Positions 18,475 through 23,062 are shown, numbered from the stretch's first letter. The stretch is 64,000 nt of DNA from Candidatus Marinacidobacterium sp. (GCA_965262645.1 CBDHFO010000017.1:1252134-1316133); one strand, 5' to 3'. Notes: generated from the sequence alone by a model not told the origin. Made by a program: numbers and translations.

Positions 18475-20415
18475 ATGATCCAGCTCGTCGGGGTCTCGAA
18501 AGCCTACGGGGAACAGGTCCTGCTCCGTGAAGTGTCCTGGCAGGTCGGCAACGGCGATCGCATCGGTCTGGTCGGACCCAACGGATCCGGGAAATCCACC
18601 CTACTGAAGATTCTGGCGGGAAAAGTCCCGCTGGACGGCGGAAAAGTTGTGCTGGCCAAGGGCAAGCGGGTCGGATACCTGCCCCAGGACGGTCTCCAAC
18701 TGACGGGCCGCAGCGTCTTTGAAGAAGTACGCACTGCCTTCGCCGACCTGTTGCGGCTGCGCCGGGAGCAGGAGGAGGTAGCCGAGCGACTGTCCCGGAC
18801 GCGCGATGAGCCGGAACTCCTCGCACGCTACGGAGAACTGGAAGAGGAGTGGCAGCGCCGCGGCGGATACGAAATGGATGTCCGCATCAGCGAAGTGCTT
18901 TCCGGTCTGGGATTCGCCACCGCGGATCAGGACCGTCCCGTGGAAACCTTCAGCCAGGGTTGGCAGATGCGAATCGCCCTCGCCCGGTTGCTGGTCGAAG
19001 CGAACGATCTCGTTCTCCTCGATGAACCGACAAACTACCTGGACATCGAGGCCCGAACCTGGTTGCTCGGATTCCTCGCACGGCACCGCGGAGGACTGGT
19101 GCTGGTCGCCCACGACCGGTTTTTTCTCAATTCCGTGGTTACGCGGATCACCGAGATCGGGCTCGGTCGCCTTGGCAACTACCCCGGCAACTACAGTCGG
19201 TACGAGTCCCAACGGGCGGCAGAAATCGCCGACCTGCGGAAGCGGGCTGCTGAGCAGGCGGCCGAAATCGAACGTACCGAGCGCTTCATCAGCCGTTTCC
19301 GCTACCAGGCCAGCCGGGCGCGGCAGGTCCAGAGCCGGGTCCGCATGCTCGGAAAGATCGAGCGGATCGAAGTACCTCCCGAGCGTCGACGGGTAGCGCT
19401 GCGGCTGCCGCATCCGCCGCGCTCAGGCAGAATTCTCGTGACGCTTACCGGCATCGCAAGAGCGTTCGGGGATAACGAAGTCTTCCGCGGCGTGGATCTG
19501 GTCGTGGAGCGCGGCCAGCGCCTGGCGCTCGTCGGTCCGAACGGCGCCGGGAAATCCACCCTCATCCGTCTCATCGCCGGCGAGGACCCTCCAAATTCGG
19601 GAACGCGTGAACTCGGCCATAACGCCCGCATCGCCTACTACGGACCCGACCGGCACGACCTGGATCCCGCGCGTACCGTGCGGGAGACCATGGCCGACGC
19701 GGCGCCGCTCTCGATGCTTCCCGAGATTCGCAACATCCTGGGCGCGTTCCTGTTCTCCGGAGACACGGTGGAAAAAAAGACAGAGGTCCTGTCAGGAGGA
19801 GAACGAAGTCGACTGGCACTGGCTCGGCTGTTCCTTCGTCCCGCAAATCTCCTCTTGCTCGACGAGCCCACCAACCATCTCGATCTGGATGCCAAAGCAG
19901 CGCTGCTGAACGCCCTCTCGACCTATCAGGGAACCATCGTGTTCGTCGCCCACGACCGGCACTTCATGGACGCCCTCGCCACCCGGGTAGCGGCGATCGG
20001 CGGCGGCGGGGCGGCTCTTTACTGGGGCAACTATTCGGACTACCTCGCGAGAACCGGCCCGACGGCGCCCGCCGAGAAGCGGCCCCCGGCCCCTGACTCC
20101 CGGGCGGCCCGCGTGGCCAAGCGGCCGAAGCGGGATGCGAAGCAGAAGACGGTGGTTGGCGAGCGCCGGCCACCGGGCAAGAACCGCCTGCGACAATTAC
20201 GGCGCGAATGGCGGGAAGTGTTCGACACGATCGCGGACACGGAAGCGGCCGTCGAGAGCCTGGAAGCGCGCATGGCCGCTCCCGGCTTCTTCGGCGATCG
20301 CGATGGATCCCGGGAGGTCACCGCTACCTACGAGGATCTCAAGAGCCGATTGCCGTCTCTTTACGAAGAACTCGAAAGACTCGACCACGCCGTAGGCAGC
20401 CAGGGGGTCCGCTGA
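18475..20415 (+). CDS. ABC-F family ATPase (two ABC cassettes, no TM domain)
   Basis: Two Walker A motifs (GPNGSGKST, GPNGAGKST), two LSGG signatures (FSQGWQMR, LSGGERSR) and a charged linker plus C-terminal coiled tail. Confidence 0.85.
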   Translation: MIQLVGVSKAYGEQVLLREVSWQVGNGDRIGLVGPNGSGKSTLLKILAGKVPLDGGKVVLAKGKRVGYLPQDGLQLTGRSVFEEVRTAFADLLRLRREQEEVAERLSRTRDEPELLARYGELEEEWQRRGGYEMDVRISEVLSGLGFATADQDRPVETFSQGWQMRIALARLLVEANDLVLLDEPTNYLDIEARTWLLGFLARHRGGLVLVAHDRFFLNSVVTRITEIGLGRLGNYPGNYSRYESQRAAEIADLRKRAAEQAAEIERTERFISRFRYQASRARQVQSRVRMLGKIERIEVPPERRRVALRLPHPPRSGRILVTLTGIARAFGDNEVFRGVDLVVERGQRLALVGPNGAGKSTLIRLIAGEDPPNSGTRELGHNARIAYYGPDRHDLDPARTVRETMADAAPLSMLPEIRNILGAFLFSGDTVEKKTEVLSGGERSRLALARLFLRPANLLLLDEPTNHLDLDAKAALLNALSTYQGTIVFVAHDRHFMDALATRVAAIGGGGAALYWGNYSDYLARTGPTAPAEKRPPAPDSRAARVAKRPKRDAKQKTVVGERRPPGKNRLRQLRREWREVFDTIADTEAAVESLEARMAAPGFFGDRDGSREVTATYEDLKSRLPSLYEELERLDHAVGSQGVR

Positions 20416-20438
20416 GAGCCTCCCAACCAGCCCCGAAG

Positions 20439-21002
20439 CTAAGGCCCGGATCCCGCCTCTTCCAACTCCACACCGAGGCCGTTGGCCATGCGGTTCACGA
20501 AGCAGTAGTAGGAGGCCACCGCACACGCGTCATGGATGTCGCGGTCGGAAAGCCCGGCGTTCCGGAGCGGCGCGAGGTCTTCCTCGGCAAGACTCGCCGG
20601 AGTCCGCGCCAGCTTGATCGCGTAGTCAACGAGAGCCCGGCGTCGCAGCGGAAGGGAACATCCTTCGGGATCGCGGCGCAATGCGTCCACCAGTTCCGGA
20701 TCTCTCGTCAGCCGGAGAAGACCCCTCCGGTGATGCTCGATTCAATAGTGGCACTCGTTGACCACGGAAACGGCGACCGCAATCAGTTCCCGCTCCGCCA
20801 GCTCGAGCCCCGATTCGCCACGCATCAGGTGCTCGTACAGGGACAGGTGGTGCTCCAGCGTTTCGGGGTTCAAGCTGGATACCCCAAGGATGTTGTCCAC
20901 GAGGCCATCGGGACGCCGGTGTCGCCGGTAGAGAGTTCCGAGCCGCCCCGAACGGCCCTCGGGGGCGTCGGGGGAAATCATGCGGATCCAGGGCACTGGC
21001 AA
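20439..21002 (-). CDS. AhpD/CMD-family peroxidase-related protein with in-frame TGA at 20744..20742 read as selenocysteine (CxxU)
   Basis: ORFs 20742..21002 and 20439..20690 are in the same frame, separated only by one TGA. The joined product reads ...LIAVAVSVVNECHY-[TGA]-IEHH.... The TGA therefore replaces the second Cys of the N-x-C-x-Y-C motif of the peroxidase-related CMD family. A hairpin follows (next feature). Confidence 0.7.
20708..20733 (-). promoter_or_regulatory. candidate bacterial SECIS hairpin
   Basis: mRNA sense: UGA-AUCGAGCA-UCA CCGGAG GGGUCUU CUCCGG C UGA. A 6-bp GC-rich core stem starts 11 nt after the UGA and is extendable by 3 bp across a bulged C. The apical loop contains GGUCU, like the GGUC loop of E. 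coli fdhF SECIS (from memory). Confidence 0.55.
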
Positions 21003-21025
21003 CCCGAAGCGTAGGATACTGGCCG

Positions 21026-21511
21026 ATGCTGCGTATCTCGTGCGACGGCTCCTGCCTCGGAAACCCCGGGCCGGGCGGCTGGGCGGCGGTGATCCTTTCG
21101 GGCGCTGGGGAGGAACGCACTCTTTCTGGCGGCGAACCGCAGACCACGAACAACCGGATGGAACTCACCGCCGCGATTCGGGCCGTGGAAGCCGTTCCGG
21201 ACGGAATACCCGCGACCGTGATCTGTGACAGCCAGTACGTGGTCAAGGGCATTACCGAATGGCTTCCGTCGTGGATACGTCGCGGCTGGCAGACGGCTGG
21301 CCGGCGCCCCGTGAAGAACGCCGACCTGTGGCGACGACTGGCAAACGCGCGCGCGAAGCGGCCCGCAGTTCGGTTCGAGTGGGTTCGGGGTCATTCCGGG
21401 CACCCGGGGAATGAACGGGCCCATGAACTCGCTTCGGAAGAAGCCATCCGGCAGAAACAGCAAACGCCAAACCGCCACCGAAGCGGTCGCCTCTTCCCTC
21501 CTAGCGGATAG
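21026..21511 (+). CDS. rnhA: ribonuclease HI
   Basis: CDGSCLGNPGPGGWAAV...TNNRMEL.A...DSQYV...W..W..NG W....V.N.DLW...W.WVRGHSGHPGNERAHELA, the canonical RNase H fold motifs (DEDD residues). Confidence 0.85.
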   Translation: MLRISCDGSCLGNPGPGGWAAVILSGAGEERTLSGGEPQTTNNRMELTAAIRAVEAVPDGIPATVICDSQYVVKGITEWLPSWIRRGWQTAGRRPVKNADLWRRLANARAKRPAVRFEWVRGHSGHPGNERAHELASEEAIRQKQQTPNRHRSGRLFPPSG

Positions 21512-22475: not shown

Positions 22476-22482
22476 CCCCGGG

Positions 22483-23051
22483 CTAGCCCGGATTTCTCAT
22501 ACTCGGGAGCGCTCGCCGAGTCGCAGAAGGCGCCACGCGGACGCTGAACATGGCGCATGGCGCCCATGCCACCAAGCGGAGCGACGCGCAGGCAAGGGAG
22601 CCCCCACCGGGAGAACTGGGCCGACCTCTGGCCAGTTCTCCCGGTGGGGGCCGGTACCGCCCCGCGCAGCGGGGCGAGCGGCGCAGATCTGAGTGAGCGG
22701 AAGCGCGGCCGGGCACCGGAACGCCACCTCCTGGGATGGGGACAGTGCCGAGACCTGAACCATCCCGGTGTGCGGCGATACGCGACTCCGCCCGCCTCCG
22801 GCGGGCTGTGCCGGGCCCCACCGGGAGAACTGCCCGGAGGTCGGCGTTCCCTGACTGGCGGCACCATCTGGATGGTGGCGTACCTGTGAGACCTGCTCTT
22901 TCGCAGCAACGCGCTGGAAGTCGGCGTTCCCTATCCGACACGCCGTCAGGTGGGTCGGGATCCGCGTTTCACATGGAACCGTCTTCCTCGTCAACAGGTT
23001 GCGGTTCCGCGGGGTGCGCTTCGGGCCGTGAGTATGAGAAATGCGGACTAG
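22483..23051. mobile_element. F3: 569-bp non-coding element with about 20-bp terminal inverted repeats (MITE-like), carrying three core boxes
   Basis: Left end CTAGCCCGGATTTCTCATACTC. The right end reverse-complements to CTAGTCCGCATTTCTCATACTC. Internal inverted core-box doublet at 22601..22650. Direct repeat GGA(G/A)GTCGGCGTTCCCT at 22836 and 22916. No credible ORF. It fills the whole gap between two convergent genes. Confidence 0.6.
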
Positions 23052-23062
23052 CGGCCTACGGA

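Follow-up and report, generated by a model that had tools for sequence, protein, structure and literature searches.

An AhpD-like gene of Candidatus Marinacidobacterium with an in-frame UGA at its CxxC motif: a likely selenoprotein gene that gene callers split in two

Introduction

Selenoproteins of the AhpD-like type, which belong to COG2128 and carry a CxxU redox motif, have been described since 2005. The Sargasso Sea selenoproteome introduced the AhpD-like protein (COG2128, CxxU) as a new family with 27 sequences (PMC1088965), and in the GOS data it ranked fourth in abundance, with 299 Sec-containing versus 902 Cys-containing homologues (PMC2398784). A 2026 review names the family 'AhpD-like protein, TIGR01926, CxxU' and also notes that Prx-like and AhpD-like selenoprotein genes can be paired in operons (PMC13188914). 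For the phylum Acidobacteria, selenoproteins of three families are on record (PMC1794560). Our literature search returned nothing on 'Marinacidobacterium' and nothing relevant on selenocysteine in Vicinamibacteria. That bacterial selenoprotein genes are often mis-annotated is well documented (PMC13326102).

Two further systems provide a frame for comparison. In AhpD of Mycobacterium tuberculosis (Rv2429; TIGR00777), a member of the CMD/AhpD fold family, the proton relay comprises Glu118, Cys130, His132, Cys133 and His137 (PMC3141380), and the second cysteine, Cys133, is exposed, attacks AhpC and becomes cross-linked to it (PMC6626918). The SECIS element of Escherichia coli fdhF is a stem-loop that lies within the coding region right 3' of the Sec-UGA and presents GGUCU at position +19. 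A general bacterial model (bSECIS) expects an apical loop of 3-9 nt, a stem of 4-16 bp and a G among the first two loop positions (pattern G[G|U]; PMC13188914), together with a UGA-loop spacing of 16-37 nt and a minimum free energy (MFE) of -7.5 kcal/mol or lower (PMC13188914). Here we analyse a locus of Candidatus Marinacidobacterium sp. that combines an AhpD-like reading frame, an in-frame UGA at the redox motif and a SECIS-like hairpin. That AhpD-like selenoproteins are already known had been stated in a sequence-only reading of this DNA, and the records of the CxxU class bear this out (PMC1088965, PMC2398784, PMC13188914).

Results

Two open reading frames in one frame are parted by a single TGA

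We analysed a 64-kb stretch of DNA, referred to as the window. On its minus strand, the ORFs 20742..21002 and 20439..20690 share a frame and are parted by one TGA (20744..20742), just as the sequence-only reading had described them. Translation of ORF 21002..20742 stops at this TGA, after which the frame is open as far as a TAG at 20441..20439. The fused minus-strand product reads ...AERELIAVAVSVVNECHY-TGA-IEHHRRGLLRLTRD..., with ...VVNECHY*IEHHRRGLLRL... at the junction of the fused translation. The same reading had given this product a length of 187 residues; the fusion holds, and 187 residues would need a start at TTG 21002, a less likely choice. The likeliest start codon, judged from the orthologues, is GTG 20996. 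Orthologous proteins begin with M-S-W-I and those of the wider family with M-[AS]-W-I, and the Met of both pairs with GTG 20996; the gene is therefore taken as 20996..20439. From this GTG to the TAG at 20441..20439 it encodes 185 aa, with the presumed Sec as residue 85. Besides TTG 21002, ATG 20981 is a possible start and is the one used by public gene callers. The features of the coding sequence are as follows.

20439..20996, minus strand: candidate AhpD-like (TIGR01926 / CMD) selenoprotein gene, full length (from translation, profiles, orthologue N-terminus and dN/dS)
20742..20744, minus strand: in-frame UGA, putative Sec85, at the second position of the C-H-Y-U redox motif (from conservation and the Cys column)
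20730..20789, minus strand: codons of the catalytic signature Glu70-x11-Cys82-His83-Tyr84-Sec85-x3-His89 (read from the sequence)

The gene is flanked by a divergent RNase H gene (rnhA, 21026..21511) and a convergent gene for an ABC-F ATPase (18475..20415). The start of the RNase H gene (ATG 21026) lies only about 29-44 nt from that of the AhpD-like gene (20981-21026). A consensus scan of 20300-21200 yielded neither a sigma-70-like promoter nor an intrinsic terminator; promoters must therefore overlap coding sequence or be non-canonical. No AhpC/Prx partner gene lies beside the AhpD-like gene in the 64-kb window.

Elsewhere in the window, positions 22482-23052 carry 23-nt terminal inverted repeats that are 91% complementary, lie 525 nt apart and enclose internal palindromes. 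These repeats are intergenic, between a PhzF-like gene and an amidase gene, and the same spot in relatives is occupied by an IS4-family transposase (L033) or by an extra gene of 443 aa (L032). The segment resembles a MITE or a hot spot for insertions.

The TGA occupies the second cysteine position of a CMD-family redox centre

Profile searches were run on the fused protein with Cys in place of the TGA. The NCBIfam model TIGR01926 'peroxidase-related enzyme' matched with 136.4 bits (cutoff 81.8), aligning residues 22-172 to profile positions 23-174 of 178 and thus running across the TGA, and Pfam CMD (PF02627) matched the fused protein with 62.9 bits (cutoff 23). With both models above cutoff, the earlier assignment to the CMD / peroxidase-related family stands. 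Three related models remained below cutoff: the canonical AhpD model TIGR00777 (20.4 bits vs 191.95), NF041238 (AhpD_rel_CFYUT; 38.3 vs 175) and NF041047 (GSU3128 family, 'distant AhpD homologue'; 18.3 vs 110). The latter two share the CMD superfamily and a CxxU centre with the window protein but represent other subfamilies. The protein has an AhpD-type CxxC centre and yet is no AhpD orthologue. Its nearest solved structures are PDB 3c1l (Mlr4105, a putative antioxidant defence protein; E = 2.7e-29), 2pfx, 6k40 (AhpD), 2oyo and 2prr. The matches to 3c1l, 2pfx and 6k40 (E 2.7e-29 to 2e-22) extend over nearly the full length, and in 3c1l and 2pfx a C-x-Y-C-x3-H motif is aligned with the window protein; these three structures are Cys forms with no biochemical tie to selenium.

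Alignment to Cys-containing homologues, which the sequence-only reading had proposed as a check, places a cysteine in the TGA column. This holds for PDB 3c1l and 2pfx, the two alignments printed, and for six Cys-form homologues, where the codon is TGC or TGT. The window sequence NECHY-TGA-IEHH is thereby matched by NECHYCIEHH, NNCEYCLAHH, NHCYYCLTAH and others in the Cys forms. Furthermore, the relay residues of M. tuberculosis AhpD correspond to Glu70, Cys82, Tyr84, Sec85 and His89, which makes the E-x11-C-x-x-C-x3-H signature complete (Glu-x11-Cys-x-x-Cys-x3-His in AhpD; Glu70/Cys82/Sec85/His89 in the window protein). The window protein differs from M. tuberculosis AhpD in having Tyr for His132 and, as predicted, Sec for Cys133, and in lacking an adjacent ahpC; PA0269 likewise has Tyr at the His132 position. 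The sequence-only reading had located the TGA at the second, resolving cysteine. The second Cys of the CxxC is indeed affected, whereas the functional label does not fit: because Cys133 of AhpD is the residue that attacks AhpC, Sec85 would sit at the attacking position, and calling it 'resolving' appears doubtful.

Both sides of the UGA are under purifying selection as protein

The orthologue scan, which used one genome per species, recovered 18 orthologues in MAGs of Vicinamibacteria / Ca. Marinacidobacterium, with amino acid identities of 72-97%. The TGA was found at the same codon in 18 of 18, and none of the 18 contained another stop or a frameshift. Decay in close relatives, the observation that the sequence-only reading had expected of a degenerating gene, was therefore absent from these orthologues. 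In total, the TGA is shared by 19 of 19 Vicinamibacteria sequences, the window included, and by six further lineages. Pairwise dS among the clade sequences averages 0.7-0.8, and dN/dS amounts to 0.12 upstream of the TGA (codons 1-79) and 0.18 downstream of it (codons 81-175), or 0.20 downstream when the hairpin codons are left out. Given this low downstream ratio, the part of the gene that lies past the 'stop' is under purifying selection as protein.

A decayed copy served as a control for these measures. The MAG that carries the intact orthologue L014 also contains, on chromosome 2 (OZ219816.1; L020:2990-3123), a relic of about 41 codons. The relic has kept the TGA, has acquired extra stops upstream of it and loses homology beyond its own short extent. 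Its hairpin is degraded to a GAUCU loop on a 5-bp stem (-4.1). It is a decayed partial duplicate of the AhpD-like gene.

More distant relatives include both kinds of protein. Two distant homologues in the same one-per-species scan read NECHY-C-IEHH, and protein searches returned full-length Cys forms along with matches of about 100 aa that start exactly after the motif. Where the contigs behind these short matches were inspected, they proved to be Sec forms of other lineages that had been called as two abutting genes, with the following lengths.

L023-L025: 81 + 99 aa
L026 and L027: 88 + 103 aa
L028: 106 + 99 aa
L029: 72 + 104 aa

Elsewhere in the window, TGA functions as an ordinary stop: glnA, glnB, amtB and pckA all end in TGA and have full-length Pfam matches. 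We therefore rejected a genome-wide reassignment of TGA, as Pfam-verified genes of the window terminate at this codon.

A SECIS-like hairpin follows the UGA

Directly downstream of the UGA, the transcript can fold into a stem-loop, listed here as its core and an extended form.

20712..20730, minus strand: SECIS-like stem-loop core CCGGAGG / GGUCU / UCUCCGG (7-bp stem, 5-nt loop)
20709..20732, minus strand: extended hairpin with two more pairs (C-G, A-U) across a bulged C (-12.2 kcal/mol for +9..+34)

The sequence-only reading had pointed to CCGGAG-GGGUCUU-CUCCGG 11 nt past the UGA, extendable across a bulged C, and to an apical GGUCU as in E. coli fdhF. We located this hairpin at 20730..20712, and the GGUCU of both elements falls at +19. 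The core begins 11 nt past the UGA and leaves a gap of 18 nt between UGA and loop. In the hairpin as first described, a G-U closing pair can be added, which gives the 7-bp stem and reduces the loop to GGUCU. The two extension pairs are weakly conserved, and the outermost one does not form in 3 of the 14 distinct sequences among the orthologues. The stem is unrelated in sequence to that of the fdhF element, and its upper part shows no evident bulged U.

Applying the bacterial SECIS model, a step that the sequence-only reading had also suggested, placed the window hairpin within all four of its published limits, with a 5-nt loop on a 7-bp stem, the loop sequence GGUCU, a spacing of 18 nt and a dG of -9.8. 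The same was true of 17 of the 18 orthologues and of five of the six distinct distant Sec forms, and the UGA-loop spacing in the Sec forms that pass is 17-18 nt. Both sequences outside these limits nevertheless form a hairpin: that of L016 contains a single A-C mismatch (-8.1), that of L026 a single bulge and likewise a GGUCU loop (-9.2).

These energies have to be read against the base composition of the window. At 66% GC, a hairpin passing the generic bSECIS criteria follows 9.2% of all UGA triplets; a hairpin as good as the AhpD-like one follows 2.5%, and 0.7% have one at similar spacing too. The window contains 461 in-frame TGAs with the frame open on both sides. The MFE threshold of the model is thus unselective in such GC-rich DNA. 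We rejected fold stability as stand-alone evidence, since dinucleotide shuffles gave z = 0.28, and found it not significant against synonymous recoding either, with 12% of recodings folding equally well. Because the stability of the hairpin is unremarkable for GC-rich DNA, its support has to be comparative.

Comparative data point to constraint at the RNA level

Across the gene, synonymous-site diversity among the 19 sequences of the clade is lowest at codons 75-90 (0.118 vs a mean of 0.331), a dip that was matched by none of 20,000 permutations. All 19 sequences have the GGUCU loop unchanged, down to the fourfold-degenerate third base of GGT. With Gly87 encoded by GGT and Arg90 by CGG in every one of the 19, both the loop and the 3' arm are fixed. 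In the clade alignment, the main helix is paired in 96.9% of cells; five of the seven pairs are invariant, and the closing pair varies between G-C (5), A-U (4) and G-U (3). Two-sided covariation within the clade is confined to one stem pair, and the observed score was reached by 18 of 500 shuffles. As this within-clade covariation is weak and only suggestive of a conserved fold, we rely on the synonymous constraint and on the comparison between lineages.

In the latter comparison, a hairpin is present at the position downstream of the UGA in seven Sec lineages and in none of six Cys forms. The folding energy of the +9..+34 segment ranges from -8.6 to -12.2 kcal/mol in the seven Sec lineages versus -1.1 to -6.2 in the six Cys forms (Mann-Whitney U = 0, p = 0.0017), and the Cys set includes GC-matched sequences (0.60-0.66). 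The peptide encoded by the hairpin differs from lineage to lineage (RRGLLR, GEALRA, GESLRA, AAGLDR, GAGLRR), as do the arms and the register. Two registers can be told apart. In the first, seen in the window clade and in L026, a 5-nt GGUCU loop lies at +19 and the 5' arm starts from +12/+13. In the second, seen in L022, L023, L028, L029 and L030, a 3-nt loop lies at +18 and the 5' arm starts from +10/+11, so that it takes in the conserved His-His codons; here, GTG or ATG directly follows the TGA.

Gene callers miss the full-length product

Standard gene callers break the AhpD-like gene in two, as the sequence-only reading had anticipated for standard pipelines. The N-terminal 79-aa and C-terminal 83-aa fragments exist as separate unnamed proteins in public collections, the former on 24 contigs and the latter on 21, in clusters of 11 and 18 members, respectively. 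The same split into 79 and 83 aa appears in the gene calls of four locus-bearing assemblies, where the second product has no Pfam match; the calls are those of the collection, and the depositors may have annotated the locus differently. A second kind of mis-annotation is seen at L022:244-807 (JGI 3300086680), where the call P0001 renders the TGA as Trp (CHYWVKHH), presumably because an alternative genetic code was applied to a short contig.

The trait for decoding Sec is indicated indirectly

We searched for the machinery that a Sec codon would require. In the 64-kb window, ARAGORN and Rfam at gathering threshold detected tRNA-Met and tRNA-Leu only, and no tRNA-Sec. Pfam scans of 20 long window ORFs revealed housekeeping genes and none of SelA, SelB or SelD, and when the window and about 240 kb from related loci were searched by tblastn with SelA, SelB and SelD of E. 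coli, nothing relevant emerged. A protein search with E. coli SelA returned, among the matches listed, Enterobacterales only. Inspection of the sequence context likewise disclosed no other credible in-frame TGA near a Cys in the window that would point to a further selenoprotein gene. That 18 species have kept the TGA of the AhpD-like gene under purifying selection constitutes strong indirect evidence from sequence that the host genome possesses the Sec-decoding trait.

Discussion

The locus very probably represents a single functional gene in which UGA 85 encodes Sec and the downstream hairpin acts as a functional SECIS. This reading rises above chance because three lines of evidence coincide, namely the catalytic Cys column, the conservation of both TGA and hairpin, and the local synonymous dip. 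Frame, family, position of the TGA, its conservation, purifying selection on both halves, constraint at the RNA level and mis-annotation are directly observed, and a mechanism can be proposed on top of them. The minus-strand gene 20996..20439 would encode an AhpD-like, peroxidase-related thiol/selenol oxidoreductase (TIGR01926 / COG2128). The stem-loop 11 nt past the UGA, with GGUCU at +19, would serve as a bacterial SECIS, recruiting SelB-GTP-Sec-tRNA(Sec) to the ribosome, provided that SelB binds it. UGA 85 would then be decoded as Sec, allowing translation to proceed into the C-terminal 100 residues. In the folded protein, Sec85 would stand in for the second Cys of the CxxC and, by analogy with Cys133 of M. 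tuberculosis AhpD, could be the exposed attacker. A conserved Glu70/His89 relay may activate Sec85, and a selenenylsulfide between Sec85 and Cys82 might form in the catalytic cycle. The enzyme would probably reduce either a peroxiredoxin-type partner or, directly, hydroperoxides.

Among the alternatives, the one that fares best is readthrough in which a near-cognate tRNA, a suppressor or local recoding places an ordinary amino acid (Trp, Cys or Gly) at the UGA, with the hairpin stimulating readthrough without SelB. It would account for the lack of located Sec machinery in the window and related loci, and one JGI call has W at the homologous TGA. We nevertheless regard it as improbable: TGA is a normal stop in other genes of the window, the codon occupies a redox Cys column in a family for which Sec/Cys exchange is documented (PMC2398784, PMC13188914), and the hairpin agrees with a SECIS of the SelB type and carries the loop sequence of fdhF at the same offset.

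Somewhat less probable still is that the UGA terminates translation and two polypeptides result, with the C-terminal fragment made separately, or that an 84-aa N-terminal product is made alone. Several distant lineages do have GTG or ATG right after the TGA, and this is why callers begin the second gene there. The window clade, however, has ATC at this place, and its first possible start is GTG 20690, 17 codons further on. Those 17 intervening codons, including the one for the relay residue His89, are perfectly conserved at the protein level. Moreover, a split would sever the CxxC centre, and the solved homologues are single chains.

A pseudogene, in which a TGC/TGT-to-TGA nonsense mutation hit a Cys-form gene and the hairpin is coincidental, would be compatible with the two fragments reported by gene callers and with a hairpin stability inside the chance range. 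It is very improbable nonetheless, as the TGA has been kept in 18 species-level genomes at a dS of about 0.7 with a downstream dN/dS of 0.18, the orthologues contain no secondary stops or frameshifts, and true decay, as in the relic, shows itself quite differently, in additional stops and in the erosion of loop and stem. Finally, an error of sequencing or assembly that hides a true TGC or TGT, for which nothing speaks beyond its general possibility, can practically be dismissed, the TGA being identical in 19 independent clade assemblies and in six lineages from other projects.

With Sec at residue 85 as the preferred reading, the locus takes its place as a real, if unremarkable, representative of a selenoprotein family that was catalogued before. 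Compared with the AhpD-like CxxU family (representative MCB9421940.1), it likewise scores above the TIGR01926 cutoff, carries its predicted Sec at the second Cys, has widespread Cys homologues and is followed by a SECIS-type hairpin just downstream; nothing fundamental differs. Members of the window clade are distinguished by their source, marine and apparently host-associated MAGs, and by the placement of the gene between rnhA and the ABC-F gene with no peroxiredoxin beside it. Since the family has been catalogued since 2005, what our analysis offers is a correction of annotation rather than new biology, and the understanding of selenoproteins is unchanged by it. The family gains a well-supported member, backed by 18 orthologues and six other lineages, along with a clean contrast of Sec and Cys forms for studying how SECIS elements evolve in coding sequence. 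Since more than 20 contigs carry the gene split in two, standard annotation overlooks a conserved redox enzyme, and it would equally overlook the dependence of these marine Vicinamibacteria on selenium.

A more far-reaching idea is that Sec forms of the AhpD-like family arose, or rebuilt their SECIS, more than once. The idea is prompted by the two hairpin registers that share one stretch of the gene, and we hold it to be possible but rather unlikely. If it were true, independent Cys-to-Sec conversions at one column would amount to a natural experiment on how a coding sequence gains a SECIS, each conversion having turned the six codons that follow (RRGLLR, GEALRA, AAGLDR) into hairpin-forming sequence. 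In a lesser variant of this idea, Sec use may be a clade-wide, unreported trait of marine, host-associated Vicinamibacteria.

An additional observation, which speaks for the Sec reading and agrees with the operonic pairing on record (PMC13188914), concerns three of the distant loci. In L023 (2112-2363 and upstream), L024 (1578-2735) and L025 (1366-2523), an AhpC-TSA / Prx-like gene lies directly upstream of the Sec AhpD-like homologue. This Prx-like gene has an in-frame TGA of its own, FYRGYW-U-PYC (UxxC), and is split by gene callers into 261 + 102 aa. Just upstream of it is a gene for a pyridine-nucleotide disulfide oxidoreductase. Together, the genes of these three loci look like a two-selenoprotein operon for peroxide detoxification.
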